A DNA stretch of 64,000 bases from an uncultured Spirochaetota bacterium (GTDB taxonomy: Bacteria; Spirochaetota; Brevinematia; Brevinematales; JAOACQ01), in NCBI GenBank assembly GCA_963768055.1, contig CAVYGN010000002.1, positions 992,001 to 1,056,000 on the forward strand, given 5' to 3'. This document shows positions 3,506-48,976 of the stretch, in pieces. The stretch's first letter is position 1, and every line of letters begins with the position of its first letter. A program made the position numbers and the translations under genes. The notes beneath the pieces were generated by a model. The model was given only the letters and a program-made list of their open reading frames with translations, was not told where the DNA came from and ran no database searches.

Positions 3506-5293
3506 TCATAAAGTCTTATTAAAGACCTCGAAGATCAGAGTACGCTCGGCAACCTGTTTGATATTTTTACTGCCGGAAGCTCTGGGAACAAGCCAGCATA
3601 CCGCCCTGTTCCCCTTGAAATATTTCATTGCCGAGGAAATTACCTTTTTAAGAGAATAAGGATTTCTGGAAACAATATTTATCATTATCATCAGCCAGTT
3701 TATCGAATAATGGCTTATATTGGAACCTCCATTGAAAAGCTGTGTAACTGAAGGGCCGGATGTCTTTTTTTTCGCATGTCCGAAATCCGGGGCTTCTGCC
3801 TTTCCTATCGGATCGACTCCGGCTGCCAGACAAAAATCTTCCGAGGCCCATTTTGCCACCGATTCAGTGGAAGAAATCCTGGAATAATTACAGCCATACA
3901 GGTCAATTATAAGTTCGAACGAACTTGAAAATCCGTCTTCGACAGGTGATTTGAACGATCTGGACAGGACTTTTGTCGGATCTGTGAGCCTCGGTTTATA
4001 ATATTCATTATCCGGTTTTAGCCTTTTATTATCCTGGGTCAGTTCCGCCCTGTAAATCAGGCTGTTATTCCGGATTTTCCGGATATCGGCGAAAGAACCA
4101 CGGGGTATGTGAAGGCAATTTCCCGATGAAGCTCCATAGTAAATAAGAGAATAGGAAACGGCATTATCAACGGGAAGTTCTGCACAGGTAAAGCAGTTGG
4201 CGCATCCTATGGAATCATACTGCCTGTAATTTATTGCGCTTGTTTCAATATACTGGATCAGGGTATCCCCCTCTCCGAATATTTCGTTTGAAACGATAGG
4301 AGTCCCGAAGGCCTTCATCTTGATAGCCTCGCATGTCTTTTCGCTCCATTCGGCAACTTTTTCCATTGTCGGGATCCTGTTGTTTTTCAGTTCGATATCA
4401 ATAACAATTTCTTCGCCATACTTATCCTGTTCGAGCCTTCGTTGAAATTCGGGATAAATCGATACGGATACATCAGGAGAATACCAATTAAATTTAAGCC
4501 CCGATTCTTTGAAAGCCTTTTTCGAATTATTTACAGACCTGGGGAAAACTTTTCTGCCCTTAGAGCCGGCGGTGAGGCTGAAAGGGCCTCCGATATAACT
4601 TGAATTTGAGAACTGGATTACCCTTACATCGTCAAAAACCCTTTCGACCTGTCTCCAGCTTGCAGGACATTCGGAAGGTTGTAATATAAGCGATCCCGTC
4701 TGGTGTATAGCTATTCCGCCATCAACAAGAGCATCGTAAACGCTCTGATAAAAATCGGTATTGAAAAGGCTTTGTGCGGGTCCGATGGGGTCGGTCGAAT
4801 CTATTATTATAACATCGCATTTATCTTTCAAGGATTTTATTACGTCCGCGCCGTCGCCGATTACAAGGTGTAATCTTTTATCGTCCCATACCCCTTCGGA
4901 TACGCTCGGCATGAATTCCCTGCACTTCTCTATTATCATTTTATCTATTTCAACCAGTGTGACAGATTTGACGGATTTATGCCTGAGCACCTCCCTGGCT
5001 ACTCCCCCGTCTCCTCCGCCTATGATAAGAATATTCCTGGCTGGTTTTAATAACGAGAATAAGGGCCAATGGGTTATCCATTCATGGTATATGCCCTCGT
5101 CCTCCTCGGTCAATTGTACCACGCCATCCAGAACGAGCACCCTTCCCAGACGGGATGTTTCAAGAATCAGCATATCCTGGTAACCGGTATCAGTGAGCGG
5201 TACCAGGACCTTTTCTACCTTAAAACCGTAAGTGATATCTGAATAAAGGTCTTCATAATACCAGAATTCCTTATTGCGGCTGATTAATCCCAT
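3506..5293 (-). CDS. speE: Spermidine synthase (aminopropyltransferase) fused to two tandem S-adenosylmethionine decarboxylase-like domains
   Basis: LDGVVQLTE, YHE, IIGGGDGG, VEID, DSTDP in the first ~290 aa; then YGEEIVID...QYIETSA...CFTC and FELIIDLYGC...GPSVTQL...SNISH. Confidence 0.88.
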   Translation of the reverse strand: MGLISRNKEFWYYEDLYSDITYGFKVEKVLVPLTDTGYQDMLILETSRLGRVLVLDGVVQLTEEDEGIYHEWITHWPLFSLLKPARNILIIGGGDGGVAREVLRHKSVKSVTLVEIDKMIIEKCREFMPSVSEGVWDDKRLHLVIGDGADVIKSLKDKCDVIIIDSTDPIGPAQSLFNTDFYQSVYDALVDGGIAIHQTGSLILQPSECPASWRQVERVFDDVRVIQFSNSSYIGGPFSLTAGSKGRKVFPRSVNNSKKAFKESGLKFNWYSPDVSVSIYPEFQRRLEQDKYGEEIVIDIELKNNRIPTMEKVAEWSEKTCEAIKMKAFGTPIVSNEIFGEGDTLIQYIETSAINYRQYDSIGCANCFTCAELPVDNAVSYSLIYYGASSGNCLHIPRGSFADIRKIRNNSLIYRAELTQDNKRLKPDNEYYKPRLTDPTKVLSRSFKSPVEDGFSSSFELIIDLYGCNYSRISSTESVAKWASEDFCLAAGVDPIGKAEAPDFGHAKKKTSGPSVTQLFNGGSNISHYSINWLMIMINIVSRNPYSLKKVISSAMKYFKGNRAVCWLVPRASGSKNIKQVAERTLIFEVFNKTL

Positions 5294-5511: not shown

Positions 5512-7317
5512 ATGGATAATGAGAAAGAAAAGAACTATATGGAAGCCTCCCTCGAGTATTCACGAATGGCGGAATTATTGAAGAAAGAGCGTCCCGCTGA
5601 AGCCGCGATTATGGTAAAAGATATTCTGGAATCGGGCGAGAGCCTCCAGGAAAAGATACGTAAAATAGAATTGATCGATGCGCAGGAAATTTCACTTTCT
5701 ATAGAGCAAACCCTCATTACAAATGAAGAAGCTCAGGACATAATACGTAAAAAGCATGTATTGACGGAGGAAACGGCCAGGAAAAATTGTGAAAAAATAA
5801 AAATAAAACTGCCGAAAAATCACTTTCTTTTATATTTATTCAGGGATTACAAAAAAATTCGTTTATTCGGTAAGTCTGCCGGTTTTATCAGATTCGGCTT
5901 CAATCCCTCCGGTGTAAAATTTGATTTTACCAGGCTCAGGACTTTATTAAATTCGCTGCAGAAAGATGCCGGCGATCTTATGGAAACATTGAATTTCGTA
6001 CTGGATAAAGGCTGGATGGACCTGGATAAGCTTGGGTATAATCTTATCGTTATTTTTAAACAGCTTTGCCAGGCAATAGTATCGGCGCCGATCGCCAGAA
6101 TAGGGACATCGGGCCGCCAGCTTCTAATGAAATACAGGGATGTTGAAACCTTTTTCCTTTCCTGCCATTATCAGCCCGAATATCCGGATATTATCCGGGC
6201 AAGTATCGTAGACGTACTTCTAAAACAGAAGAAAGCTGAAAGCACGATCGAGCTCTCTGAGATCCAGACAAAGAGGATCCTGTGGGAGCAGGGTAACTTT
6301 CTCTGCCTTCACAATTTCATACTTTCGATAAATATGTTCGAGTATAGAAGATTTGTCAAGCTGGACGATCTTATCCACAGGCAGCAGGGTGGAATAGTGA
6401 ATACGTTCTCATTCGATTGCCCGCCGAATATCCAGCAGAAGATCAATGTCTATATAAACGATAAGACACAGTCCCTGCAGAATTTGTTAAGGGACAAGGT
6501 AGAGATAAACAGGATCCAGTATTTTTTAAAACATTTCATCAAACAGGATTCCTCGGGTTACAGGAGTTATAATTTCAAGATTTTCATCGATTTTTACAAC
6601 TATACCGGTTTCGGGGCCGAAGAGGATTGTTTCAGCTACGATAAGAGCAATACCGCCAAATTGGCCTTCAATATTTTTTCAAAATTTTTAGCAGAGTTCG
6701 AAAATTTTTTTATCGACAAGATAAATATTGAGGATTTCGGTCCTATCAGGGTATTCAGCAGGGAAGTCTTTCAGCTTGAAATCGATAAGCTCCGCCTGGG
6801 GGTTTTGAAATTTTCGGATTCAATTTTTACCCTGCCGATAGTTTCCAGGAGGGAATTCTTTGAATTAAAAACCTCTAAAAAGGAAGTAATGCCGGCCCCT
6901 CCCGTACTGGCTATGATACAAACTATCGACGCTCTTTCCGACATTCTCTCTGAAATAGGGACAAAACTTGGCAATATCCATATAAACTATAAAAATGCAT
7001 CCTTAGAAAACCCTGCGGAAAATCAGGTCAACCCTCTTGAAATCTCTGCAACCAGGCAGCGGGTTGTTTCAGTCCCATACTGGGATAAAAAAATTATGAC
7101 TCCGGGGTTTTTAAGGGAAAAATTTTTTTCTGACGCGGTTGCGACAATTACGAGCCTTTGTTTTCTTTCGGCGGTTTATTTTTATAATATGCGTTTTTAT
7201 ACGGTCCTCGAAAAGGAAATGAAGATCAACAATATGATAATGGATGTAAAGAAAACCCTCGAAAGGCTAGCCGATGTGGTAACTTATGAAAAGATCAGAA
7301 AACTGCAAGGCGATTGA
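5512..7317 (+). CDS. Hypothetical protein, predicted mostly alpha-helical and cytoplasmic
   Basis: 601-aa ORF with AGAGG RBS; no recognisable motif. Confidence 0.7.
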   Translation: MDNEKEKNYMEASLEYSRMAELLKKERPAEAAIMVKDILESGESLQEKIRKIELIDAQEISLSIEQTLITNEEAQDIIRKKHVLTEETARKNCEKIKIKLPKNHFLLYLFRDYKKIRLFGKSAGFIRFGFNPSGVKFDFTRLRTLLNSLQKDAGDLMETLNFVLDKGWMDLDKLGYNLIVIFKQLCQAIVSAPIARIGTSGRQLLMKYRDVETFFLSCHYQPEYPDIIRASIVDVLLKQKKAESTIELSEIQTKRILWEQGNFLCLHNFILSINMFEYRRFVKLDDLIHRQQGGIVNTFSFDCPPNIQQKINVYINDKTQSLQNLLRDKVEINRIQYFLKHFIKQDSSGYRSYNFKIFIDFYNYTGFGAEEDCFSYDKSNTAKLAFNIFSKFLAEFENFFIDKINIEDFGPIRVFSREVFQLEIDKLRLGVLKFSDSIFTLPIVSRREFFELKTSKKEVMPAPPVLAMIQTIDALSDILSEIGTKLGNIHINYKNASLENPAENQVNPLEISATRQRVVSVPYWDKKIMTPGFLREKFFSDAVATITSLCFLSAVYFYNMRFYTVLEKEMKINNMIMDVKKTLERLADVVTYEKIRKLQGD

Positions 7318-10797: not shown

Positions 10798-12291
10798 CTA
10801 TTGATTATAATAATCCCTCTTGATTTTTTCAAATTCGTCTTTTCCGCATGCAAGGGCCGCGGCAGCGGGAGCGGTTTTTTTTACGGTTTCAACCATTTCG
10901 GATGCTATTTTCCGTATATCCCACTGCGCGTAAGCGTCCATGCGCAACCTCGCGATATGATAGATTTCCCGTAAATTGACATTTACAAGTATCCTTCGCC
11001 TGTGGGCGTTAGTAAGGATGTAGTCCGAGGCCATGCCGTTTTCAGTCTTTAATTTTTCATAAGTATTTTCCGTTTCTGCAATGATATTATTAAATAAGCC
11101 GGCCATTCCGATCTCTTCGATCGATGGGGGTAATGTGACACCGAGCGAAGTCTCATAGGGCTGCTTGAGTATAGTCATCATCCGGTGCCTTTTCATCTGT
11201 GCAAAGGCGCTTGAACTAAGGATAATTTCAAACAGGAAATTCACATTTTCGAATTCCCTGTAAAGAGCGTCGTGCTCGCCCAGGTCTTTAAATATCTCTT
11301 TAAAAAAAAGAGTCCGCCCGTTTTCATTCATATTTTCCGCGGCCGACAGGCATTCCATGAAAGATCTCGCCGATGACGAATGAAGAAGGCTTGCTATGAT
11401 TTTTATGTCGGGTTCGGGCGTTTGTTCAAGAAGGGTCACGTTCCTGCCTGTTTTCGACTCTTTTCCGTTAAGATATTTTTTTGCCAGTAATTTAAGGTTT
11501 TCCCTGCCCTGTTTCAATATGCCGTCGGAAACGTCTCTGCCCGTTTGTTTTTTAAAACTTTCCCGGTCGGTCAATATAATAAGGGAGGGCACTACGGTCT
11601 TAGCCTTTTCGTAAAGTTTTAACGACAGGTCCCGGACTTCACTGAGAGGGTGGTATTTAAGTTTCCTGATAATATTTTCTAGGTTCCTGGCGTTAACGGA
11701 AAATCCGAGCTGGCATTCGGTGGCAAGAGACATGACATAACGGGCGTCTTCCTTGGCCCGCCCCTCTATTATGTTCGCTCCGGATTTCGTGGCTGTCATT
11801 TCAGGATGGGCGGCTTTCTGCGCTTCATGGAGAGCAGGGAAGAGTTTCATGTAAGCATCTATCTGTTTACAATAAGCGGAAGAGAAGAGCTCTTTATCTT
11901 CATCATTAAACTCTGCGGGTATTACCGTATCTCCCTCAAGGGTTATATATCGCTGTGATTTTTCCGTATACGAACTCAAACGTGATTCTTCAAGGGCTTC
12001 GACAGCGAGCCTCGATAAGCCGGTAATATCGAAATTCAGGCAGGCATGTTCGGCAACAGAGTGGTGCCCCATTTTAAATATAATGTTTTCGTTAGATTTC
12101 CTCGCTTTATCAAGAGCGTCCCTAGCCGCCGCGCGCAGTTCGCCGACAGGGCGTTCGTCCCTGCTGATTCTCGCATAGGCTGCGGAAAGCGTCTCCGGAG
12201 TAATGTTGTCCCTGCCGTCCCAACCTCTTTCTTTGAGGGATTCCAGGACTACTGCATCTACGTTAAATCCGGCAAGTTCGATTTTAAGCAT
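10798..12291 (-). CDS. thyX: FAD-dependent thymidylate synthase, tandem two-domain form
   Basis: GHHSVAEH, EKSQRY, EDARY in domain 1; QMKRHR, NLRE, HIARLR, AQWDIR in domain 2. Confidence 0.9.
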   Translation of the reverse strand: MLKIELAGFNVDAVVLESLKERGWDGRDNITPETLSAAYARISRDERPVGELRAAARDALDKARKSNENIIFKMGHHSVAEHACLNFDITGLSRLAVEALEESRLSSYTEKSQRYITLEGDTVIPAEFNDEDKELFSSAYCKQIDAYMKLFPALHEAQKAAHPEMTATKSGANIIEGRAKEDARYVMSLATECQLGFSVNARNLENIIRKLKYHPLSEVRDLSLKLYEKAKTVVPSLIILTDRESFKKQTGRDVSDGILKQGRENLKLLAKKYLNGKESKTGRNVTLLEQTPEPDIKIIASLLHSSSARSFMECLSAAENMNENGRTLFFKEIFKDLGEHDALYREFENVNFLFEIILSSSAFAQMKRHRMMTILKQPYETSLGVTLPPSIEEIGMAGLFNNIIAETENTYEKLKTENGMASDYILTNAHRRRILVNVNLREIYHIARLRMDAYAQWDIRKIASEMVETVKKTAPAAAALACGKDEFEKIKRDYYNQ

Positions 12292-12313: not shown

Positions 12314-13342
12314 CTAGTCTAACACTCCGATTTCCAGGGGAGGCCTTTCTATCAGTTCGTACTTCACCCCGGCTTCCTTGAAAAGCTCTTCGAAAGTTTT
12401 ATCGGGATAATAAGAACAGGCAATGAATTTCCTGATCTTTGAATTCACGATCATTTTAGCACAGATTATGCAGGGGGAGTGAGTGCAGTAAATAGTTGCG
12501 CCTTCAGTGGTTATTCCATTTAAGGCGGCATGTATAATGGCGTTCTGCTCGGCATGGACTGCGCGGCAGATCTCGTGCTGCATGCCCGATTTGATTCCAA
12601 GCTGGTCCCTGAGACAGCCGAGTTCAATGCAGTCTTTAATTCCGGAAGGGGCCCCGTTATAACCGGAACTGACTATATGATTATTATTTACTATGACAGC
12701 GCCTACATGGTGCCTGATGCAGGTGGAGCGTTCCGCTATGAGGTAGGCCATCTTTATAAAATATTCGTCCCAGGACGGCCTGATGTAAGGTTTGTAATTA
12801 AGTTCGGCAAGGATTGCGTCCAGTTTTTTATACATGGACCTCAAGCTTCCGGAATTATCGATTTTATAATCGGCAAGCTCCAGACAGCGGTTAAGCTGCT
12901 GGGCCTTATCATCCGAGGAGTTTTCTCTTTCCTCTTTACGGATAAATTCCTCAAGGGTCTCCCCGTCACCGACCCTTCCCCTCTTAATAGACCTTTCGAA
13001 CCTGTTATGTATGTCGGCCGTTATACCGATGAGTTTGAAAGATTTAAGATTGCTTCTTAAAACTTCGATTTCATATGGGTTTCTTATACTGTCGACAATC
13101 GCCTGCGGGAGGTTTTTAATCTTTGTTATGACCCTTTTAGCCAGGGTCGCCGGGCCTTCGCTTTCCCTCAAGTCATTGCCTATATCGATAAGACTGTCGC
13201 GGTTTGATTCCAGACCCTGCCTTACAGCTTCTTCCCTGATAATGTCGGAAAGAGAAAAAGCGATGAATTTTTTCTTTTCCACGAGGTATTTTATAGCTTC
13301 GCCCTTTCCGGCGGCGTTCGTCCCTGTAAAACCTAGAAACAT
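12314..13342 (-). CDS. P-loop nucleotide-kinase-like domain fused to dCMP deaminase
   Basis: GTNAAGKG P-loop, DSIRN; RPSWDEYF, RSTC, GYNG, HAEQNA, PCIIC. Confidence 0.9.
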   Translation of the reverse strand: MFLGFTGTNAAGKGEAIKYLVEKKKFIAFSLSDIIREEAVRQGLESNRDSLIDIGNDLRESEGPATLAKRVITKIKNLPQAIVDSIRNPYEIEVLRSNLKSFKLIGITADIHNRFERSIKRGRVGDGETLEEFIRKEERENSSDDKAQQLNRCLELADYKIDNSGSLRSMYKKLDAILAELNYKPYIRPSWDEYFIKMAYLIAERSTCIRHHVGAVIVNNNHIVSSGYNGAPSGIKDCIELGCLRDQLGIKSGMQHEICRAVHAEQNAIIHAALNGITTEGATIYCTHSPCIICAKMIVNSKIRKFIACSYYPDKTFEELFKEAGVKYELIERPPLEIGVLD

Positions 13343-33976: not shown

Positions 33977-34003
33977 TTCACAGGGAGAAACGGAGAAGTG
34001 GAG
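33977..34003 (+). repeat. Left arm of 27-bp inverted repeat pair (partner 39066..39092)
   Basis: TTCACAGGGAGAAACGGAGAAGTGGAG; 25/27 match to the reverse complement of the partner. Confidence 0.75.
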
Positions 34004-34816
34004 AAAAACCTTTTTATGCAATGTTTTCACATGTGTAAATTTTCTAAAATAATCCTCTCTTATTTTCATGAATTTTGACAATAAATATTTAATTCTTTAA
34101 CATTACGCCATAATATTTTGTAGGGTTTTACTTTATCAAAATTGTCTTTATTGAGTACAGGAGTATTAAGTACCAGGTGAAATATTTATCTATTCTTTTT
34201 ATTGATATTTAAATTTTGTGCGGCATATTATAAGGAATATTTTTTAGCTATAATCTGCTGAACAATACTTTCGAGGTAAATATGAAACTAGTTTATTATT
34301 TCATTTCCTTATTCTTTATATTAATTCCAATTACATATGCATATGAACTTACATGTTAACAATACAAACTATACAAATAATTTACAACTTTGTGTAGGTT
34401 TTGAATATATGCATGGTTATGCACTTTATGAAATCGAATTTAATAACCCTATTGTAACAACGCCAAGAAGTGAATTAAAATATCCGGTAAACTTATTTTT
34501 ATTGACTGCTTCTCTTTCCTGGAATTTAAGTGATGAAACAAAACTTCAAATTATCTTAAAGGGTAGTATATCCACAAACACTGGAATATTTGAAGACTAT
34601 GATTGGGGTATTTATTATTATGATTTTCAGGAATCCTGGGCAAGTCCCACCTCTCTTGATTGTTATTCAACAGCTGAAACAACATTGGGATTTTATTCAA
34701 TCGAAGGTTCATTAATTGTCGAGGACCGGGTAGATTCCCCAGTGGCAGGGGCATGAGATTCCCCACCTTTTCCTGAAAAATACCGTTCTTGATTTTAGAG
34801 AGAAATCATAAAACTT

Positions 34817-35563
34817 TCAAATAGTTTTCCCTTCCTTCCGGAAAGATTTTCCATCTTTGGATTTTACCAGGATTTTAATTGAGCCTGAAACAAGGCGGTC
34901 AAGCATAGCCCCTCCAATCACAGGATCAGGGAAGATTGCCAGCCAGTCCTCCGGAGGCCGGTTGCTTGTCAGAATAATGGACCTGTTTCCAAGCCTTTCA
35001 TCGACAATCCGGTATAGGTATTCCGTTTCTTCATTGTCGAGTTTTTTAAATCCGAAATCGTCTATTATCAGGAGGTCTGTTTTAATACACTTTCTGAATA
35101 GAGTATTCTTAAACATAAGCTTTTCGCTTTTCAAGTCTTCAAGAAGAACCGCGGCTTTCTTGAAAAGAACTGTGTTTCCTCTTCTGCAGGCCTCATGGCC
35201 GACTGATTTTGCAATGCATGTTTTACCTATGCCGGGAGGCCCGGCGATGACAACAAACTGTCTCATATCCATGAAACGGCAGGACGCGATTTCACGAATA
35301 AGCCTTGAAGGGATAGCGCTCTCATTGAAATTAAAATCAAACCCCTCGAAAGTGTTTTCCTGGCCGAACTTCGCTTCTCTCAGCCTCTTTTTGAGCATGT
35401 TATTATCCCTCTGGCATAATTCATCCTGAACTAACAAAGAGAAAAATTCTCCATAGTCCAGGTTTGATTCTTGAGCCTCCCTGATCCGCATAGGAAGGTT
35501 GAATAGCATCCCAGGAAGCTTTAACCTCCTTAAGTTTGCCTCAAGCTGATTCTGATGTTCCAT
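34817..35563 (-). CDS. istB: IS21 helper ATPase
   Basis: GPPGIGKT, LLIIDDFG, TSNR, AMLDRL. Confidence 0.95.
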   Translation of the reverse strand: MEHQNQLEANLRRLKLPGMLFNLPMRIREAQESNLDYGEFFSLLVQDELCQRDNNMLKKRLREAKFGQENTFEGFDFNFNESAIPSRLIREIASCRFMDMRQFVVIAGPPGIGKTCIAKSVGHEACRRGNTVLFKKAAVLLEDLKSEKLMFKNTLFRKCIKTDLLIIDDFGFKKLDNEETEYLYRIVDERLGNRSIILTSNRPPEDWLAIFPDPVIGGAMLDRLVSGSIKILVKSKDGKSFRKEGKTI

Positions 35564-35581
35564 ATTTCCTCCTCATTATCT

Positions 35582-37123
35582 CTATTGAAAGTAATAGCTG
35601 CCGTCCCTGGTCATTTCAGACCCTTCTTCTGAAATTTCAAACAGGGTGTCCTGTTTATCCTTTCCTTCATTTTCCATCCAGCTTTTGAATAGTTTGGGAT
35701 CGGTTATTTTTGCCGATATTGCTCTTTCACAGACTTTATTAAAGTATTCTTCTTTCGAGAATGTTTCCATTACACTTAAGAACCCCAGGGCCCTCCGGCA
35801 ATTCAGATTAGCATGAACAGCAAGGATTTGAAAGATCAACTGGTATGCGGCTTCTCCGTATTTCCTCGACTGGTCTAATAAATACTTGGGGTATCCCCCG
35901 GATAGCATCTCCCTTGTATTCTCCGGAAAATCAGTCTTTTCATATGCTGCATGTCCTCTTGGTACGACAAATTCCCGGATAAGTTTGTACTGGAAGAAGA
36001 TCTTCACTAAATTGCCGGTTCTCCTGACAAAGACTTCCTCTCCACGATACCTGGGAGGCAGGGAATACCTCTTTTTCTCGAACTGGACAAATTGGTCCGG
36101 GTGTACCTTGGCCTTTTTCCATACGGGAGTCTTAAACCTTTCTTCAGGAAGCTTCTTAAGCAGGGGCTTCTCTATCGTTTCAAATACCTCTATTGGTTTC
36201 AAACCTGTTGTTCCATGGTTCCTCATCCCGTATTCATACCTGCACCATTCCAGAGCTTTGATGTTTAATTCCTTTAACGAGGCTCCGGGATTAAGGGCTT
36301 TAAGTTTTCTGAAAAGCTCTCTGGCAACAGGGACCATTCTCTCTATCTTGGCTTTATCCTTTGGTTTCCTTACCCTGCAAGGATCAAGAAAAGTATTGTA
36401 ATACTCCGCATAATCAGCATATGCCTGATTATATTTAGGATCGTAAAGGTCCGGTGATATGATGCCGGTTTTCAGATTGTCCAGGGATATTCTTACAGGC
36501 ACACCGCCGTAAAACTCCAGCATATCCACATTGCTTTCAACGAATGATTCCTGGTTTTGTGAATAGACATATTGAACAAATGGCAGCCTTGAACTCGACA
36601 TTATTCCGATAAAAGACTGCACGATCTTGTTGTGCCCCAGGTATTCCATTGTGCCGGCCCTGCCGTAGTCAAGCTGGATCTCCTGACCAGGGTTAGTTTC
36701 AATCCGGATGGTTTCCTTTAATTCTTTAGCTGTAAGGCCGCTCTTTATCGAGAATCTCTTGAAACTTGTATAGCTTATGTCCAGATTATGCCTTATACAG
36801 ACAACTTCAAAGGCTGTCTTGGGTTTCATTCCGTTTTTCGGGTCATTTATGAGCCCGTACAGCTCATCTTTATATCGTTCAAGTATGCTTGCCTTATTTT
36901 CATTTTTTGGAGGCCCTACAAAGGGGCGTTTCAGATGGAATTCTTCCCGGCTTATTGTTTCTCCCGCCTTTTCAAAGCCGTAATCGATAATTTTTTGAAT
37001 CGCTAGTCGGACTGTTTTCCTATCCCTGTTTTCCTGTTCGGAAATTTCACTTATGCTTTGATCGGCTTTCCATCGTCTGTAAATGTCATAGTAATCCTGT
37101 TCGTTCATAAATCTGTACCCCAT
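35582..37123 (-). CDS. istA: IS21 DDE transposase
   Basis: N-terminal HTH, PGQEIQLDYG, GGVP..ISLDNLK, PKDKAKIER, HGTTG. Confidence 0.95.
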   Translation of the reverse strand: MGYRFMNEQDYYDIYRRWKADQSISEISEQENRDRKTVRLAIQKIIDYGFEKAGETISREEFHLKRPFVGPPKNENKASILERYKDELYGLINDPKNGMKPKTAFEVVCIRHNLDISYTSFKRFSIKSGLTAKELKETIRIETNPGQEIQLDYGRAGTMEYLGHNKIVQSFIGIMSSSRLPFVQYVYSQNQESFVESNVDMLEFYGGVPVRISLDNLKTGIISPDLYDPKYNQAYADYAEYYNTFLDPCRVRKPKDKAKIERMVPVARELFRKLKALNPGASLKELNIKALEWCRYEYGMRNHGTTGLKPIEVFETIEKPLLKKLPEERFKTPVWKKAKVHPDQFVQFEKKRYSLPPRYRGEEVFVRRTGNLVKIFFQYKLIREFVVPRGHAAYEKTDFPENTREMLSGGYPKYLLDQSRKYGEAAYQLIFQILAVHANLNCRRALGFLSVMETFSKEEYFNKVCERAISAKITDPKLFKSWMENEGKDKQDTLFEISEEGSEMTRDGSYYFQ

Positions 37124-37908
37124 CCATTCCCCTCCGGTTTTTTCCGGAGAGTATGTTTGATTTTTTAGATTCTGAACAGGAAAAGGTGGGTGGGGAATCT
37201 CATGGCCCTATTTTGCCTTTTTACTGGGGAATCTGGGTGGCCCCGGACACATTAATCAACAAATTTGCTTCCTGGAACGATTTTGAATTCTCAAGAAGCC
37301 TTGGATTGATATGTCAATATTACAACTATAATGTTTATAATGACAATGAATCATTTCCTTCAAAGGGAATATATGGTTCAAATGCAATAAATCTTGTCCC
37401 GAATTATGACTTTTCCAGCGGTTTAGGTCTTACTTACCTTCTACAGGAATATATGCCTTATGCGTCATTTATTATCGATTACAATTCACTAAATTTTAAA
37501 ATTAATAGCCTGTTGGGGATTTCACCGGTTTTTTGTTTCGGAACTGACACTCATTATATTAATAATCAAAATGGTGTACCGCAATTGGAAGTTTTCATGC
37601 CGAGTTTTGGGTTAGGTATAATTTCAAGGCTTAGCATCTCGTATTACTTTAGCAGTAATTTTTTTATTAAGCTCAATTTAGAATCTATATATGTATTAAG
37701 CTATGGTTATGATTTTAATAATCAGAATAGCTCCAACATCGAATCTACCAGTCAGGAAAGCCTGCAATTTAATGCGGGAATAAATATAGGAGTCGTATTT
37801 TAATATTTCCAAAACAATTTTGAAACGGTTTTTATTAACTACGATAAATTTCCTAGAATAGTATAAAACGATAAAAATAATTATATAAATAAATTCAATA
37901 TATTTCCT

Positions 37909-38814
37909 CTATAATTCAAAATAGTCATTATCTATTTTTTTAATTTCATACGAATTTACCAATGCAGTGCCAATATTATGTTCAATCATTAATTTACTCA
38001 TTTCCATACCATCGATTAATATTATATTTGCGTCAATTTTTAACACATATTCTTTTGCATCTTTTGTAAAACCTGATGTTGTTATAAAAATTCCTTTTTT
38101 AGCTTTTTTACCTAACAAAGCCCCGGCGAATTTTTGTATTTCAGGCCGTCCAACTACATTATCCCATTTTTTAGCTTGTACATATATTACATCTAAACCC
38201 AATTTATCTTCTTTAATTACACCATCAATTCCTTCATCTCCACTTTTTCCTACTACTTGGCCTGCTTCTTTTAAAGAACCTCCATAACCCATTTTTACTA
38301 ATAAATCCACAACAATTAACTCGAATTTTTTTGAAGTAACGTTCATTAATTTTTCAACCAGTTCTTGTGATAAAGAATTTTTAATTTTTTCATAAGCATA
38401 TTCAATTGATTCTTCCGGGGTTATTGAATCAATGAAATTTGAATCTTCGTAAATTTCTTCTTTATCATTTTTTGAATTTTGAAACTCGTTAAATTCATCA
38501 AACTTTTTTAGATAATCACTATCAATAATTTTAGGATTTTCTTTTAAAACAATTAATCCTCTTTTTGATATTTTAAAAATTGATCTTCCGACCTTTTCAA
38601 GTAATCCCGCTTTAGTTAAATAAGTTTTTGCCCACCCAATTCTATTGTGAAAAGTTGATTGCGTCCCGGAAGGTAGCATTTCGTTTAAATCTTCTTCTGA
38701 TAGTTTAAAATTTATTGATAAATGTTGTCTTACTTCGTTTAAATCATGTTCCTTATTATCAGAAGCAAATTGTAATATAGGAAGCATAAATTCAAAATAT
38801 TTTGGAACAGACAT
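37909..38814 (-). CDS. mrr: Mrr-family type IV restriction endonuclease
   Basis: Mrr_N (NRIGWAKTYL) plus catalytic GDEGIDG...YVQAKKW...FITTS; visibly AT-rich. Confidence 0.93.
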   Translation of the reverse strand: MSVPKYFEFMLPILQFASDNKEHDLNEVRQHLSINFKLSEEDLNEMLPSGTQSTFHNRIGWAKTYLTKAGLLEKVGRSIFKISKRGLIVLKENPKIIDSDYLKKFDEFNEFQNSKNDKEEIYEDSNFIDSITPEESIEYAYEKIKNSLSQELVEKLMNVTSKKFELIVVDLLVKMGYGGSLKEAGQVVGKSGDEGIDGVIKEDKLGLDVIYVQAKKWDNVVGRPEIQKFAGALLGKKAKKGIFITTSGFTKDAKEYVLKIDANIILIDGMEMSKLMIEHNIGTALVNSYEIKKIDNDYFEL

Positions 38815-38941
38815 AAAAATTATCCATATTTTTATTGCAGTTATATTATCATTATAATGATAACAATAATATTATGTAAATATTTTTGAATTTAAAAATT
38901 GAAAATTACGAAGCTGTTTATTAAAGATTATTCCTCAACGT

Positions 38942-38995
38942 CCTTTGCACCCTCTGCGTTCTCTAACTTTGCGTTCTTCGCGACTTTGCGGTAAA
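38942..38995. repeat. Degenerate short-unit repeat (CTTTGCG/CTCTGCG type)
   Basis: CCTTTGCACCTCTGCGTTCTCTAACTTTGCGTTCTTCGCGACTTTGCGGTAAA; loosely complementary to CACACAAAGACGCCAAGG near 33890. Confidence 0.5.
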
Positions 38996-39065
38996 CCCCA
39001 TAAAACTAAAAATAATTACGAAAAGCTGCAAAAGAATTATCAAAGAAGAGATTATTCAATCTCTG

Positions 39066-39092
39066 CTCCGCTTCTCCGTGTCTCCCTGTGAA
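39066..39092 (-). repeat. Right arm of 27-bp inverted repeat pair
   Basis: CTCCGCTTCTCCGTGTCTCCCTGTGAA. Confidence 0.75.
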
Positions 39093-39140
39093 TTTATCCC
39101 TGAAATGTAGTGAGTTATTTATTTAACTATATTGAATTAC

Positions 39141-39635
39141 CTATAATAATTTCTGATAATAGACATTGTCTAAAATTCTTTCGAACTTATGCACCATATT
39201 TTTAAAATAACCGCATTTTATATATGAACTCTTTTCAAACAATTTTATACTTGCTTCATTTTCCGAACATATTCCCGCAATTATAGTTTTTATTCCTTTC
39301 TGTTTGGCTATTTTTTCGAGATATGAAACGGCGGATGTTCCTATCCCCATGTTCGTGTATCCGCTTTTTATGTATATTGTAATTTCATAAGTATATCTAT
39401 AACCGTCTTTTACGCTATAAGGCCTCAGTAGGCAGAATCCGCAAAAAGCCGATTTATAATAAATGCAATAAGCGTATGTTATTGAACTTTCAATATTAAA
39501 ATATGAAATAATTTCCTGTGTTGAAAGGGGTTTAATAAAAGCTATCGCGGTAGAATTTTTGATATAGTAATTGAAAACATCCGAGATATCGTTGTAGTCG
39601 ATCTTTCCCGATTTTTTAAAGGTAATATTATTCAT
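39141..39635 (-). CDS. GNAT N-acetyltransferase (YncA/phosphinothricin acetyltransferase-like)
   Basis: FNYYIKNSTA, GYRYTYEITIY, GIGT, NEASIKLF. Confidence 0.85.
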   Translation of the reverse strand: MNNITFKKSGKIDYNDISDVFNYYIKNSTAIAFIKPLSTQEIISYFNIESSITYAYCIYYKSAFCGFCLLRPYSVKDGYRYTYEITIYIKSGYTNMGIGTSAVSYLEKIAKQKGIKTIIAGICSENEASIKLFEKSSYIKCGYFKNMVHKFERILDNVYYQKLL

Positions 39636-39717
39636 GATCTATACAAACTTAAATTTTCCGAATTGATATCAATCTTTTCATAAAAATCCATAAATACCTC
39701 TTAAGGCAAAAAATCTA

Positions 39718-40347
39718 TTATCTGATAAATATAAAAAGAATAAATCCGGTGACAGCCAGTGAGAAGATTCCAATCAAAATAGATTGAAATTTATTTGTTT
39801 TTAGCGAAGCATATGCTCCAATAGGGAAAAGTATGATGTACCAGGCCAGAGCAATGAACTGATAAATATCGGCGAAAACCCTCCAGAAGCCCGGCCTTGC
39901 TATTATTCCGAGCCATTCTTTTTGTGTTAACAGACCGGTCGCAAACAGAATACTGCCGATTGTTTCCGGAATCCAGGTTAATAGACAGGGAAGCGCGAAA
40001 GCAAAACCCATAACGGCGAGAGTCGAATCAAAAGACCCCTGTCCTATAAAAACTTTGCCGGTTAAATAAATTAATGAAGAAGCAAAAATCCAGCCCATTG
40101 CAAATATCGGCAGTGCAAAAAATATTTCCCAGAAATAATATTTTTCCGCCGGGATATTGATCCAGGCCGGTGTTATTATCTTTGCATTTGATGCGGCCAG
40201 CATTATAACCGTGATGGTGTAAAGAAAGCCGATAATAAGTATAATACAAGCCCCGTATCTCAGGCTGTTTTTGTCTTTTACCAGTTGGTCGAATGTTTTA
40301 TGAGGACGCAGGATTGATCTGAACATGTATTTCAGAAATTTCTTCAT
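39718..40347 (-). CDS. Yip1-like membrane protein
   Basis: ILRPHKTF start, about five TM helices, FALP..L..IP. Confidence 0.65.
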   Translation of the reverse strand: MKKFLKYMFRSILRPHKTFDQLVKDKNSLRYGACIILIIGFLYTITVIMLAASNAKIITPAWINIPAEKYYFWEIFFALPIFAMGWIFASSLIYLTGKVFIGQGSFDSTLAVMGFAFALPCLLTWIPETIGSILFATGLLTQKEWLGIIARPGFWRVFADIYQFIALAWYIILFPIGAYASLKTNKFQSILIGIFSLAVTGFILFIFIR

Positions 40348-40616
40348 GCTTTCCACCTTGATTACTAAACTTAATTATTAATTTCAATCAAGTTTTTCCA
40401 AACGACTTCATTATTGCCGCTTTCAATGGTCTATTCATTCATATAACAATTTAAAATCATCACTTACAAATATATTTTCTTCGTGCCGTCCTATTAAATA
40501 AAATTCCTTATTCATAATTATATTATGTTTCACAGATAAATCCAATTTTATAATCAGTGCAATCAGTGCGATCTGTAGTTTCAATTTGTTTATTCCCCCC
40601 CGGTTGCTTCGATTTA

Positions 40617-41276
40617 TTAATCTTCCTCGTCGATAAGCACGACCCTGTTGGGCACGCCTTTTTTAACCTCGGGATAATTTTCCAGCAGCAGTCGTCCGTC
40701 GGATTTCCTGAAATAGAAATCGAAATGGAAAAAACTTCCGATGAGGCCGGTCAATGCCACTTTCACTTTCACGGATTCCACCTTGGACCCGCCCAGATCG
40801 ATGGTTTCTTCTTTTTTCTTGACGGCTTTAAATTCTGCAATCTGATTCAAATTATTCGGGTTTACTGACCAGAATGTTTTTTCCTTAGTGTCTGACATTA
40901 TGTAGCTTTCCAGGCCGATTTCCCACTGTTCTATCCAGGGATCGCTGTTTATCGAGATTGTTTTGTCAATTGGTTCCCCCTTGAATATGCCTTTTATTTT
41001 AATCGTATTTCCTACTCGGACGCTTTCGAGATCGATCTTTTTGCCGGGGTTTGAATATTTCCATTTTAAGGTGCTGAAATCCGGATTCAAAATAAAATCA
41101 TTGTTTCCGGTAAGATCCGAAATTCCCGTTAAATGATAACCGTTTTCTATAGAGCTCATAACCAGCACATGGTACAGATCATTTGAAATGGTGTTTTGCC
41201 TGTACTTAAGCGTTAAACTGTAAACCGGGACACATATAAAAATAAAAATAATTATAATACTTAATCGGAAATCCAT
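40617..41276 (-). CDS. Exported hypothetical protein (DUF3108-like beta sheet)
   Basis: Signal peptide; EETIDLGGSKVESVKVKV...FYFRKSDGRLL. Confidence 0.6.
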   Translation of the reverse strand: MDFRLSIIIIFIFICVPVYSLTLKYRQNTISNDLYHVLVMSSIENGYHLTGISDLTGNNDFILNPDFSTLKWKYSNPGKKIDLESVRVGNTIKIKGIFKGEPIDKTISINSDPWIEQWEIGLESYIMSDTKEKTFWSVNPNNLNQIAEFKAVKKKEETIDLGGSKVESVKVKVALTGLIGSFFHFDFYFRKSDGRLLLENYPEVKKGVPNRVVLIDEED

Positions 41277-41417
41277 AAACTCCTCTGCTTTTTTAAAAAA
41301 ACATGCAATTTAATAAAAATATTTTCTTACTAAAAATTTTTATTTTACCATTAGTATTAATATAATAATGGAAAGTAAAATAACAAAAAGAATTTCTCTT
41401 TTATTTAGAGGCATAAG

Positions 41418-41786
41418 ATGAATACAGAAATATTCCGCGATCCGGCAACACATGAACCCTTGAAATATGAGCCGGGTAAAGGATTCATAAACCCTGCGAC
41501 AGGGATAAAATATCCTGAAAAGAATGGAATTGTCCGTTTTATCGATGATGGCGAACTTACCGGAAACAATAAAAAGTACGCGAAACTTTATGACAGGCTG
41601 GCTTTTCTATATGACTTACCGGTGAAATTATATGCAGTCATCCGTAACGGCGGTTTAAAGAAGCGGCGGGAAGAATTCCTGAGGGAAATCGAGATCAAAC
41701 CTGGGGGCCTTGTCCTGGAAACATCCGATCAGGAAATCGCTATCTTAAATAATGCCCGGCCAGGCCGATCAACGCTCCGAGGATAA
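41418..41786 (+). pseudogene. Truncated SAM-dependent methyltransferase with Trm112-like N-terminus
   Basis: DPATHEPL...YPEKNGI, YDRLAFLYD; similarity breaks at VLETS before the glycine motif, then overlaps the convergent gene. Confidence 0.6.
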
Positions 41787-42057
41787 TAGACATTAAAGAG
41801 ATTATAAAGGCCGATTTATTAGCTTTAGACGATACTATTATGATAGTCGGAAGAACCAGGGCCAGGGAAATTAGACTTCCCTGCAGCCACCAGACAACTC
41901 CGGGCAGGTTTATATTTACAATGATGATCGATATGAAAAAGTATTGAAGAAAAGCGGCTATAATTGCGCGTTTATCCATCTTCTGGAGGACCATCGGTAA
42001 AATATCGATAACTCCGGCGACTACTCCGATTAACATCGATAAAAATAAAATTCTCAT
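41740..42057 (-). CDS. Small 4-TM hypothetical membrane protein
   Basis: Hydrophobic 105 aa, AAGGAG RBS. Confidence 0.7.
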   Translation of the reverse strand: MRILFLSMLIGVVAGVIDILPMVLQKMDKRAIIAAFLQYFFISIIIVNINLPGVVWWLQGSLISLALVLPTIIIVSSKANKSAFIISLMSIILGALIGLAGHYLR

Positions 42058-42179
42058 ATATTCTCCTTATATTATATTTCTTTTTCCATAAAACAGCATG
42101 CTTGTTTAAAATCCCTATAGAGACCTTTTTTCCCCCCAGATCGCCGATAAAGCGAGAGGTTTCATCCGTTATTTATCCT

Positions 42180-42677
42180 TTAAGATTTTATATACTCCAC
42201 AATGGGCCGGATTTCATCCCGGTTTATCCTGTTAAAATCCCTGGCCATCAGCTTCGCTTTTTCCGGGTCAGTTTTTGCAGTCATTTTAACGGCAAAATTA
42301 ATAATACTTCGTTCCAGCCACTTGAATTCTTTGAATATCATTTTGCCGTTTAGGGGGAAATAGGGCAGACTTAAACAGATTTCTTCAGGGAAATTGGATT
42401 TAAAGTGATTTTGGAGCTCCGGATCGGTCTTTAAAGCTGCGGATGTCGTATAATAGACAAGTTTTTTTCCCTTGAGCTTCGGCCAGTTTTTTTTAATCCA
42501 TCTTCCGATAGCTGGCGAGCCCATTCTTATACAGCTTCCGATGATCAGTATATCGTAATCTCTAATATCCCTTACTTTACTGACAGGTACCGCTTCGAAC
42601 CCTGTCTCTTCCTGGAGCCATTTTGCATAGCACTCCGCCGAACCTGTAATTGTCCTGTAAATGATCAATCCTTTCAT
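42180..42677 (-). CDS. Flavodoxin-domain protein (HemG-like)
   Basis: IIYRTITGSAECYAKW, YDILIIGS. Confidence 0.8.
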   Translation of the reverse strand: MKGLIIYRTITGSAECYAKWLQEETGFEAVPVSKVRDIRDYDILIIGSCIRMGSPAIGRWIKKNWPKLKGKKLVYYTTSAALKTDPELQNHFKSNFPEEICLSLPYFPLNGKMIFKEFKWLERSIINFAVKMTAKTDPEKAKLMARDFNRINRDEIRPIVEYIKS

Positions 42678-42856
42678 AATATTCTCCTATTAATAGCGAT
42701 AAATGCGTGTGACAATCGATAATTATAATATAATATCATGTATAATTCCAGCATTAGTTACCAGCCGTTACTTGTTCAAATATTTGACAAGATAAAAAAA
42801 TTCGATTAATATATGGACTATTAATCCAATATGGAATATAATTCTATGAGGATTAT

Positions 42857-43486
42857 ATGGGAACAAAAGATAGAAAATTGAGAGAATTGGAAAAGAGGCG
42901 CAGATTGATCCTTGATAAAAGCAGGGATCTGTTCTTCCGGAAGGGGTTCGATAATGTTACCATAGATGAAATCTGCACTGCTATAGAATACGGAAGGAGC
43001 GCTTTGTACAAACTTTTTCAAAGTAAAGAAGAAATATATTTCAATATTTGTATTGAAGGGATAAACCTCCTTGGGGAGAGTTTGATGGATCTGAACATGA
43101 AAAGTTATTATTTTGAAGAGGAATTTTTAAGAATCCCTAAAATCTTTGTAAAATTTTTCTTCGAACAGAAAAACTATTACGAAGCAATGTTATTTTTCAC
43201 AAAAAACAAGCAGGCAGATCTCAGTATTTCAAACGAACTCTTTGACAGGATGCTGGATGTCAGCCGTATTGCAATGAACCCTATCGACCTCCTGGTAGCT
43301 CGGGGAATCGAACTGGGAATATTGAAAAAAGCCGATTACGGGCGGATCATTATTTTATTTAAAGTCTCACTTACCGGCCTGCTGGATAAGTTTTTCCTTG
43401 ATAGGGACAGTATTGAAATGAATATTATCGAAGAATTTTGCCTCGACCATGCAAGGATTTATTTGAACGGCTTAAAATCGATGTGA
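42857..43486 (+). CDS. TetR/AcrR-family transcriptional regulator
   Basis: LFFRKGFDNVTIDEI...ALYKLFQSKEEI; divergent from the flavodoxin gene. Confidence 0.9.
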   Translation: MGTKDRKLRELEKRRRLILDKSRDLFFRKGFDNVTIDEICTAIEYGRSALYKLFQSKEEIYFNICIEGINLLGESLMDLNMKSYYFEEEFLRIPKIFVKFFFEQKNYYEAMLFFTKNKQADLSISNELFDRMLDVSRIAMNPIDLLVARGIELGILKKADYGRIIILFKVSLTGLLDKFFLDRDSIEMNIIEEFCLDHARIYLNGLKSM

Positions 43487-43858: not shown

Positions 43859-45390
<1,532 letters not shown>

Positions 45391-45640
45391 TTTAGGGAGA
45401 AAAAAAGTCACTGGACTCTCATCATTTATATAAAAATAAAGGATGAATATAAAAAAGGTATCTTGATTTGTTTAACGCAGATCGAGAACAATTCGCCTGT
45501 CAACGTATATAAATCGTTGAGGTTCATCTGAGCTCATTGGGGTAATGAGCTCACGCCGAACTTTTGCGAGGCGTAGAGCGAATTACACCGAAGTTAATGA
45601 GCCAAGCCGAGCAAAGTGAGGCATAAGGCGAATTAACCGA

Positions 45641-45714
45641 GGGTGTATAGCTCAGTTGGTTAGAGCGCAGCCCTGATAAGGCTGAGGTCGGTGGTTCGAA
45701 ACCACCTACACCCA
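45641..45714 (+). tRNA. tRNA-Ile(GAT)
   Basis: Cloverleaf, anticodon loop CTGATAA, GGTTCGAA T-loop; CCA not encoded. Confidence 0.96.
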
Positions 45715-45765
45715 ACCCCTCACAAGGTGAGGAGCGTACTTGATCGCATATGCGCTCAAGCACGG

Positions 45766-45838
45766 GGGGGTGTAGCTCAGCTGGGAGAGCGCCTGCCTTG
45801 CAAGCAGGATGTCAGGGGTTCGATTCCCCTCATCTCCA
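45766..45838 (+). tRNA. tRNA-Ala(TGC)
   Basis: Cloverleaf, TTGCAA loop, G3:U70 pair; CCA not encoded. Confidence 0.96.
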
Positions 45839-45910
45839 GGCAAGAAACAAAGAAAAGAAAAGAATAGGAAAGAAAAAGAAAGAAAAGCGGTTATAGGAAT
45901 AAGGTAAGAA

Positions 45911-48803
<2,893 letters not shown>

Positions 48804-48834
48804 TTCTTTCCTTTATTCTTATATCGTTTTATTT

Positions 48835-48940
48835 GCTCTCGACCATAGCGCAGGTGTTACACCCGGTCCCATTCCGAACCCGGAAGTTAAGCCCTGCGTC
48901 GCCGATGATACTCGTTTCGGGGAAAGTAGGTGTCGAGAGC
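48835..48940 (+). rRNA. rrf: 5S rRNA
   Basis: GCTCTCGAC/GTCGAGAGC terminal helix, CCCATTCCGAAC, GCCGATGATACT. Confidence 0.93.
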
Positions 48941-48976
48941 TTTTTTTATTTATTTTAAGACAAAAAGAGGAAAAAT

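Follow-up and report, generated by a model that had tools for sequence, protein, structure and literature searches.

The window analysed here is a stretch of 64,000 nucleotides from an uncultured Spirochaetota bacterium of the Brevinematales (contig CAVYGN010000002.1, positions 992,001 to 1,056,000), and the gene in question is its open reading frame (ORF) P0001, which encodes a fusion protein of polyamine metabolism. The protein consists of an N-terminal aminopropyltransferase, SpeE (spermidine synthase), followed by two tandem domains with the fold of class 1b S-adenosylmethionine decarboxylase (AdoMetDC). The two copies are herein named c1 and c2, and together they are referred to as the module. 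NCBIfam, hhalign, and Foldseek support this architecture, which a first-pass annotation of the stretch had already proposed. The ORF and every residue and codon coordinate of that annotation, S352 among them, were correct on recheck. All features are collected in Table 1. Public records name members of this family just "spermidine synthase" or "polyamine aminopropyltransferase", so that the second enzyme stays hidden.

Table 1. Features of the SpeE–decarboxylase fusion gene; positions are those of the window.
Feature	Position	Strand	Basis or remark
Whole ORF P0001	3506..5293	(-)	595 aa + stop, ATG start
SpeE aminopropyltransferase, residues 1-285	4439..5293	(-)	N-terminal tetramerisation and catalytic domains, PF17284/PF01564
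c1, residues 286-402, pyruvoyl and Cys half	4088..4438	(-)	hhalign 99.6%, alignments, counts
T351-S352, predicted self-cleavage site	4238..4243	(-)	aligns with T. maritima S63 and D. phosphitoxidans S229
S352, predicted pyruvoyl serine	4238..4240	(-)	equivalent to T. maritima S63
C370	4184..4186	(-)	equivalent to T. maritima C83; 110/110
Ordered linker, residues 403-450	3944..4087	(-)	AF2 pLDDT 81-96, secondary structure assigned
c2, residues 451-573, Ser and His half	3575..3943	(-)	hhalign 99.8%; PF02675 best stretch 461-564
S515	3749..3751	(-)	equivalent to T. maritima S55 and human S229; 110/110
H528	3710..3712	(-)	equivalent to T. maritima H68 and human H243; 110/110
c2 pyruvoyl position Gly523, Cys position R543	within 3575..3943	(-)	alignment to T. 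maritima
C-terminal tail, residues 574-595	3509..3574	(-)	final β-strand 586-591, pLDDT 84-97

The SpeE part looks like an intact, ordinary aminopropyltransferase, because the fusion protein scores above the cutoff of NCBIfam NF002010 (285.9 bits, cutoff 260) and the SpeE motif residues are invariant in the A1 alignment of 52 sequences. The N-terminal start "MGL.." is kept across the same alignment. In Pfam, this part is matched by PF01564 (E 1.1e-49) and PF17284 (E 1.2e-9), and the score for TIGR00417 lies slightly below the cutoff (246.8 versus 249.55). The full-length AlphaFold2 (AF2) model has a predicted local distance difference test score (pLDDT) of 84.6 and a predicted template modelling score (pTM) of 0.66. 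Its SpeE part resembles E. coli SpeE (3o4f) with a target-side template modelling score (TMt) of 0.85-0.89 in Foldseek. Since the full-length fold search returned SpeE structures alone, the C-terminal module was folded separately.

Folded alone from a 15-row alignment, the module reaches a pLDDT of 90.0 and a pTM of 0.91. Its single domains resemble T. maritima AdoMetDC (1tmi_A/1tlu_A) with a TMt of 0.83 and an rmsd of 2.0, and the module matches 2iii with a TMt of 0.78. The AdoMetDC fold that the first-pass annotation had read into both regions is hence present in both. In the linker between the copies, the tail strand 412-418 parallels the C-terminal strand 586-591. An ESM Atlas look-alike search of the module gave a best score of 0.85 and no family and is not used as evidence.

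The sole low-confidence stretch of the module model is the loop of residues 501-516 (nt 3746-3793). It is formed by the invariant Ala-Pro-Asp-Phe-Gly-His-Ala-Lys-Lys-Lys-Thr-x-Gly-Pro-Ser directly before S515 and contains three invariant lysines.

The kinship of the two copies is seen with family profiles. On the single sequence, PF02675, the family expected from the first-pass annotation, is borderline and below its cutoff of 25 bits (21.3 bits for the whole protein and 24.3 bits for the C-terminal 308 aa, in two stretches). Copy c1 by itself gives nothing relevant in Pfam, and phmmer of the C-terminal 308 aa against the PDB gives chance ABCB1 matches only (E ~1). The profiles decide the matter: in hhalign, the c1 family aligns with 17 stand-alone PF02675 proteins at 99.6% (E 1.5e-24), the c2 family with the same 17 at 99.8% (E 9e-28), and c1 with c2 at 98.1% (E 8.9e-14). 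Each copy in addition retrieves its own stand-alone PF02675 proteins of 111-163 aa. Searched exhaustively with phmmer, 1.84 billion representatives yielded 43 matches to the C-terminal 308 aa. PF02675 is found in 34 of the 36 that were scanned with Pfam, in 33 of them above the cutoff. The other two of these 36, P0126 and P0133, were set aside as they look like frame-shifted translations. With residues 285-595 as the query, 153 of 2484 candidate proteins matched at E <=1e-3, and 120 of the 153 were listed. After 10 shorter fragments had been dropped from these 120, 110 full-length relatives of 570-610 aa were aligned, and all counts out of 110 given below refer to them.

In the bacterial AdoMetDC dimer, S63 and C83 of the active site come from one protomer and S55 and H68 from the other (T. 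maritima numbering). The residues of the module were mapped by aligning the A2 profile, which consists of stand-alone relatives and both window copies, to T. maritima 1tlu and 1tmi. The pyruvoyl position is fixed by the one place at which these two chains are Ser and Ala, respectively, since it is this serine that S352 aligns with. In c1, T344 corresponds to S55, E350-T351-S352 to S61-E62-S63, and C370 to C83. In c2, S515 corresponds to S55, G523 to S63, H528 to H68, and R543 to C83. Hence, neither domain alone holds the full Ser/His/Cys set, which is complete only across both.

The first-pass annotation had described the same half-sites, and most of its assignments stand. For c1, it was right about S352, C370, and a Thr at the S55 position, but the Arg that it placed at the H68 position does not hold: the alignments have a two-residue deletion there, R357 is reached as Ser+5 by counting only, and there is no His either way. 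For c2, S515, H528, and Gly at the S63 position are confirmed; R543 is present but not conserved.

The complementary pattern, until then read from a single protein, is kept across the 110 relatives. E350, T351, S352, R357, C370, S515, G523, H528, N532, and W533 are found in 110/110 each, and Q347 and Q518 in 109/110 each. The T344 position holds Thr in 103, Ser in 6, and Ala in 1. On the reciprocal side of c2, position 521 drifts over at least six residue types (K39/R31/Q15/E14/A7/N2), position 522 is Gly in 69/110 with others in the rest, and position 543 varies as well (R55/Q18/T6/E6/G5/N5, others in the rest). The strongest argument of this analysis is that the active set is invariant while the reciprocal c2 positions drift, which argues for a working enzyme with one composite site and against a scaffold. 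Architecture and single composite site together are judged highly probable.

A scaffold would mean that the tandem module is catalytically dead and serves SpeE for structure or dimerisation, as does the N-terminal domain of animal spermine synthase. In the human protein, this domain is a dead class 1b AdoMetDC fold that is required for dimerisation, and neither copy of the window module has a full catalytic set by itself. However, exactly one complete set is invariant in 110/110 while its counterpart drifts, and the Glu-Thr-Ser cleavage motif is intact, which makes a dead module very unlikely.

The pairing of the two halves was also modelled with c1 (module residues 1-135) and c2 (165-308) as separate chains. 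The median ipSAE is 0.58, and the best of three controls reaches 0.00. The runs show at least 60% contact agreement and a partner pLDDT of at least 63. The mark applied herein is passed by 116/157 solved complexes and 2/215 mismatches; scores of 0.60 or less comprise just 18/157 solved complexes plus both passing mismatches, so that the prediction weakly supports the pairing. The pass may reflect memory of the solved bacterial AdoMetDC dimer.

The eukaryotic class 2 AdoMetDC distributes its residues over the chain in a way similar to the module, with Cys82 of the human enzyme in its first half. In both systems, one chain with two class 1b-like halves forms one α-β-β-α sandwich (eLife 2016) with one active site, and the eukaryotic monomer is described as a fusion of two bacterial half-sandwiches (eLife 2016). 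The first half holds the pyruvoyl Ser and the second half Ser229 and His243 (PMC3975893), which is the order of the window protein. According to the same source, the pyruvoyl group is formed from human S68, activation depends on S229, and the second step on H243. T. maritima Ser55 is described there as the analogue of human Ser229, and the T. maritima S55A variant as still processing (PMC3975893). With the whole module, the top Foldseek matches are eukaryotic: T. brucei AdoMetDC/prozyme (5tvf/6bm7/5tvm chains E, F) and the human proenzyme (1msv, 1jl0), aligned in order over 305-323 columns. The E-values are 6e-7 to 1e-5, but the resemblance is moderate, with a query-side template modelling score (TMq) of 0.42-0.49 and an rmsd near 10 A.

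In contrast to these likenesses, class 2 AdoMetDC has no sequence kinship with the module beyond the fold, goes back to a separate duplication, lacks the SpeDC signature described below, and is not fused to SpeE. A PDB sequence search named class 1b chains alone. The module would thus work like a class 2 AdoMetDC without belonging to that family, a likeness that appears to be one of function only. Of the eukaryote-like pseudo-dimer proposed in the first-pass annotation, the arrangement of Ser/Cys followed by Ser/His stands. Common descent with class 2 is not supported.

How the two copies came about is indicated by relatives in which SpeE is followed by a single decarboxylase domain. Eight such proteins have one complete domain that holds Ser, Glu-Thr-Ser, His, and Cys: P0127, P0128, P0131, P0134, P0135, P0140, and P0142 (435-469 aa) and the partial P0130 (308 aa). 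P0285 (469 aa) of the P0131 cluster is named from Ca. Paceibacterota. A search for shorter relatives of the P0127 domain gave 3 matches among 7 candidates. Like the window protein, these fusions have SpeE first and a decarboxylase domain of the same lineage, with P0127 as the nearest intact relative of both copies; unlike it, their one complete domain must pair between two chains. No paper describing them was found in a search outside of which most subscription journals lie.

In a 59-row domain tree, c1 and c2 (12 rows each) are both supported at 100/100. Together with the P0127 domain they form one clade (98/91; 98/94 in a 51-row tree), which is nested among the SpeE-fused domains (99/91, 29 rows; 59-row tree). 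The stems leading to c1 and c2 are long (1.18 and 1.01). Because c1, c2, and P0127 fall into one supported clade, the tree points to a tandem duplication inside a SpeE fusion that was already there, after which the copies diverged fast, and to an event separate from the eukaryotic one. The independent duplication suggested in the first-pass annotation is borne out by this clade.

Double class 1b proteins without SpeE and with the domain order reversed are found in P0161 (258 aa; a four-member cluster, one member on 11 contigs), P0157, and P0159. Their first domain keeps Ser and His and has lost the pyruvoyl Ser and Cys. The second domain of P0161 keeps Glu-Thr-Ser and Cys and has Arg at the His position, as in R357. 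These proteins look like a second, independent complementary pseudo-dimer. Both the window family and the unrelated P0161 have an Arg where the pyruvoyl half once had its His, which hints at a recurrent closing of the unused site.

The substrate of the composite site was assessed by comparison with SpeDC, a clade of class 1b homologues described by Li et al. 2023 as pyruvoyl L-ornithine decarboxylases without AdoMetDC, arginine, or lysine activity (PMC10407285). The diagnostic residues given for SpeDC are Gln, Thr, Phe, and Tyr (PMC10407285, section 7), which lie in the motif Gln-Leu-Ile-Glu-Thr-Ser ... Gly-His-Phe ... Tyr-x-Asp-x-Phe-Ser-Cys (PMC10407285, Fig. S5). For the true AdoMetDC, SpeD, the same paper gives Glu-Ser-His ... 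His-x-Trp-Pro-Glu and calls one Pro invariant; by our own reading of Fig. S5, this is the Pro of Trp-Pro-Glu (PMC10407285). The window protein has Glu-Thr-Ser-Ala and His-Tyr-Ser-Ile-Asn, and both Glu/Asp-Ser-His and His-x-Trp-Pro-Glu are absent. Two of the four SpeDC marks are kept (Q347 in 109 and T351 in 110 of the 110 relatives), the Phe position has changed to Tyr in 104 and still holds Phe in 6, and neither copy retains the fourth mark, Tyr. Of the stand-alone relatives found with the A2 profile (1033 proteins at E <=1e-5 among 1706 candidates), the best 120 carry the marks almost throughout, with Gln, Thr, and Phe each present in 120/120 and Tyr in 111/120. Stand-alone SpeDC and the window protein share the Gln...Glu-Thr-Ser motif, His, and Cys, and in the tree the module falls within the clade of this signature. 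Stand-alone SpeDC, however, is a homodimer with two full sites, whereas the window protein has Tyr at the Phe position and has lost the Tyr position.

The placement comes from the 51-row tree, which was rooted on the phage AdoMetDCs S-PM2, phiYS40, and P2559S and on the motif-canonical speH_2 of Microcystis phage MaAM05. The AdoMetDCs of S-PM2, phiYS40, P2559S, and phiN3 were validated by complementation (Li et al., PNAS 2023, PMC9992855). All 23 signature-bearing stand-alone proteins and all fused domains form one clade (98/96, stem 1.86), in which the window module is nested at 98/96 and then 96/92. The four validated AdoMetDCs lie outside of it. PhiN3 lies just outside and is the known AdoMetDC closest to the ornithine decarboxylase (ODC)-like group, with a cleavage site Asp-Ser-His versus Glu-Thr-Ser-Ala in the window. 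The AdoMetDC equivalog TIGR03330 (cutoff 75.65 bits) has no match for the window module and gives 21-38 bits for relatives.

In MaAM05 itself (L010), the cluster consists of speH_2 with the canonical AdoMetDC motif, speH_1 with a non-canonical motif and no Pro, speE, and speB.

Judged by motif and tree position, the module is much closer to the SpeDC pattern than to that of SpeD. L-ornithine is the likely substrate because the module descends from the SpeDC branch and has kept the Gln and Thr marks. Most likely, then, it supplies SpeE with putrescine and not with decarboxylated S-adenosylmethionine (dcSAM). The AdoMetDC identity assumed in the first-pass annotation, and the dcSAM channelling that it considered possible, are not supported, in view of the position in the SpeDC-signature clade, the retained Q347 and T351, the missing Glu-Ser-His and His-x-Trp-Pro-Glu, and the absence of a TIGR03330 match.

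That earlier reading, in which the composite site decarboxylates S-adenosylmethionine, dcSAM is passed to the protein's own SpeE, and putrescine comes from elsewhere, nonetheless has several points on its side. SpeE needs dcSAM, and every published decarboxylase–aminopropyltransferase fusion has an AdoMetDC. No other SpeD-like ORF is found in the 64-kb window or within 10 kb at seven related loci, though ornithine as substrate requires a separate AdoMetDC. Single-domain SpeE fusions often have Pro at His+3, like true AdoMetDC, and phiN3 shows that an AdoMetDC can adjoin the ODC-like clade. Against these stand T351, where true AdoMetDC has Glu/Asp before the Ser, an Ala and not a His after the Ser, and the lack of Trp-Pro-Glu after H528 (position 531 is V/I/M in 96/110 and E/T/A in the rest). 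PhiN3, the exception, itself has Asp-Ser-His. The four validated AdoMetDCs outside the clade and the silent TIGR03330 count in the same direction, and the validated SpeDC enzymes are reported not to have restored spermidine in a delta-speD strain (PMC10407285). S-adenosylmethionine as the substrate is, on balance, possible but doubtful.

Several further observations weigh against ornithine. Two of the four SpeDC marks are altered, those at the Phe and the Tyr position; at the latter, c1 has A54/C40/S12 (position 364) and c2 V97 (position 537) among the 110. The link to the validated SpeDC enzymes is made by the motif and the text of the paper, the SpeDC side of the tree being represented by signature-bearing stand-alone proteins. 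The stand-alone relative P0186 (Sumerlaeota) is MFW6255955.1, which is not among the accessions assayed by Li et al. A tblastn search of P0137 against phages gave 10 records, none of which is one of the validated phage ODCs LBP or UCP01-04. The SpeE-fused clade shares a His-x-Ser-x-x-Trp motif of its own, with N532 and W533 invariant in the 110 relatives. In several of the single-domain fusions, His+3 is Pro, the residue that true AdoMetDC keeps invariant at this place. A change of substrate after the fusion is therefore possible. In addition, the position in the clade does not fix the substrate: phiN3, though a true AdoMetDC, groups with the ODC-like phage proteins, and the enzyme of phage UCP01 acts on Arg as well as on Orn (PMC9992855).

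The dual Arg/Orn activity of UCP01 and the phage arginine decarboxylase (ADC) HTVC201P, both of the ODC-like clade, are also what speaks for L-arginine, or arginine and ornithine, as substrate, with SpeE aminopropylating agmatine or putrescine. ADC activity is reported to have evolved several times in this fold (PMC10407285). Yet all seven stand-alone SpeDC (Table 3) and both fusion proteins (Table 4) of that paper are listed as inactive on arginine (PMC10407285), and neither the window nor the loci have an agmatinase or ureohydrolase neighbour. Arginine is hence regarded as quite unlikely.

Putting these parts together, the protein is best explained as a single-chain two-enzyme protein, an account to which, with ornithine as the substrate included, an even chance is given. 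The N-terminal 285 aa are a normal SpeE, and in the C-terminal 310 aa two class 1b AdoMetDC-fold domains would form a pseudo-dimer within the one chain. Once duplicated, each copy would have lost the catalytic half that the other kept, leaving one composite site to which c1 contributes the self-cleavage motif E350-T351-S352 and C370, and c2 contributes S515 and H528. The proenzyme is predicted to cut itself between T351 and S352, with S352 becoming the pyruvoyl group. The cut proposed there in the first-pass annotation agrees with the Ser of Glu-Thr-Ser that is Ser229 in D. phosphitoxidans SpeDC, where S229A abolishes ODC activity (PMC10407285). The products would be a chain of 351 aa, which comprises SpeE and the opening strands of c1, and one of 244 aa, and the common β-sandwich would keep the two together. 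L-ornithine would then be converted to putrescine beside the SpeE site that uses it, and dcSAM would come from a separate AdoMetDC elsewhere in the genome. A fixed channel between the two sites is not indicated by the models, in which the SpeE–c1 junction is ill-defined, with a pLDDT of 53-67 and a full-length pTM of 0.66.

The module can also be regarded as a living example of the route assumed for eukaryotic AdoMetDC, consisting of a tandem duplication and reciprocal half-site loss. In its boldest form, this reading has the site widened or switched in substrate, so that it feeds SpeE putrescine, dcSAM, or both and the whole becomes a self-contained spermidine-making protein. It fits with a gene that stands alone without polyamine neighbours, with single-domain relatives in a small-genome Paceibacterota metagenome-assembled genome (MAG), and with the second lineage (P0161), which has a similar complementary split and the reversed domain order. 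It is considered unlikely.

Related fusions have been described in bacteria. The SpeD1–SpeD2 fusions of D. phosphitoxidans, Ca. Omnitrophica OLB16, and V. vadensis (PMC10407285) resemble the window protein by having two tandem class 1b domains in one bacterial chain. In the V. vadensis form, one half is degraded, and this form has been put forward to illustrate how class 2 may have arisen (PMC10407285). As described there, these fusions join a true SpeD to SpeDC, have two sites or a complete first and a dead second domain, and have a separate speE beside them (PMC10407285). In the window protein, by contrast, a single SpeDC-like domain gave rise to both halves by internal duplication, each half has lost what the other keeps, and the module is fused to the C terminus of SpeE. 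A class 1b domain and an aminopropyltransferase share one chain also in the AdoMetDC–aminopropyltransferase fusions of Pelagibacter, a delta-proteobacterium, and Ca. Krumholzibacteria and in animal spermine synthase. In these published fusions a single decarboxylase domain, a true AdoMetDC (dead in animals), stands at the N terminus, whereas in the window protein it is C-terminal, doubled, and SpeDC-like. No published description of a SpeE-C-terminal, tandem, or complementary form was found, with most subscription journals lying outside the search. The window protein is kin to both the class 1b tandem fusions and the decarboxylase–aminopropyltransferase fusions.

It offers a natural, testable model of how a homodimer with two shared active sites turns into an enzyme of one chain and one site. 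Such a step is assumed in the history of eukaryotic AdoMetDC, and a bacterial intermediate formed from like with like was not known before. If ornithine is the substrate, this would be the first putrescine-forming enzyme fused to a spermidine synthase, and the pyruvoyl ODC family would extend to Spirochaetota (Brevinematales) and Aminicenantota.

The nearest genomic relatives are found in Brevinematales/Spirochaetota MAGs (L001, L002, L003, L005, and L006), with 64-80% identity over the module, followed by the Aminicenantota MAGs L004 and L007 with 55-57%. L005 and L006 are two paralogous triple fusions (594 and 580 aa) on different contigs of one Spirochaetota MAG. A six-frame scan with the A2 profile over the window and the seven loci (2103 frames) matched the eight fusion genes only. 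None of the 54 other ORFs of the window belongs to a polyamine family, and neither does any of 98 neighbour ORFs of at least 100 aa at six of the seven loci (all except L002; E <=1e-10). At L006, a gene of the IF-2B family (PF01008) lies two genes upstream of the fusion. This family includes the methionine-salvage enzyme MtnA; if the gene is MtnA, it would provide a link to methylthioadenosine (MTA), the by-product of SpeE.

L001 and L002 share the neighbour genes of the window. Divergent from the fusion gene lies a 601-aa ORF without a Pfam family (5512-7317, (+)), which occurs at the same position with 75-77% identity in L001 and L002 only. Further along, a ThyX of 497 aa (10798-12291, (-)) is matched by Thy1 (PF02511) in two stretches, which looks like a single-chain form made by tandem duplication, likewise in L001 (503 aa). 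In another gene (12314-13342, (-)), an N-terminal AAA_17 kinase-like domain is fused to a dCMP/cytidine deaminase domain. Positions 43859-48941 (+) hold a complete rRNA operon consisting of 16S, two spacer tRNAs, 23S, and 5S, which explains a GC-rich stretch with short ORFs that match no Pfam family. The region 34000-43000 is of low GC (30-38%) and is probably a mobile island. Encoded there are an IstB ATPase of the IS21 type next to a transposase (34817-37123), a restriction endonuclease of the Mrr kind (37909-38814), and an acetyltransferase of the GNAT family.

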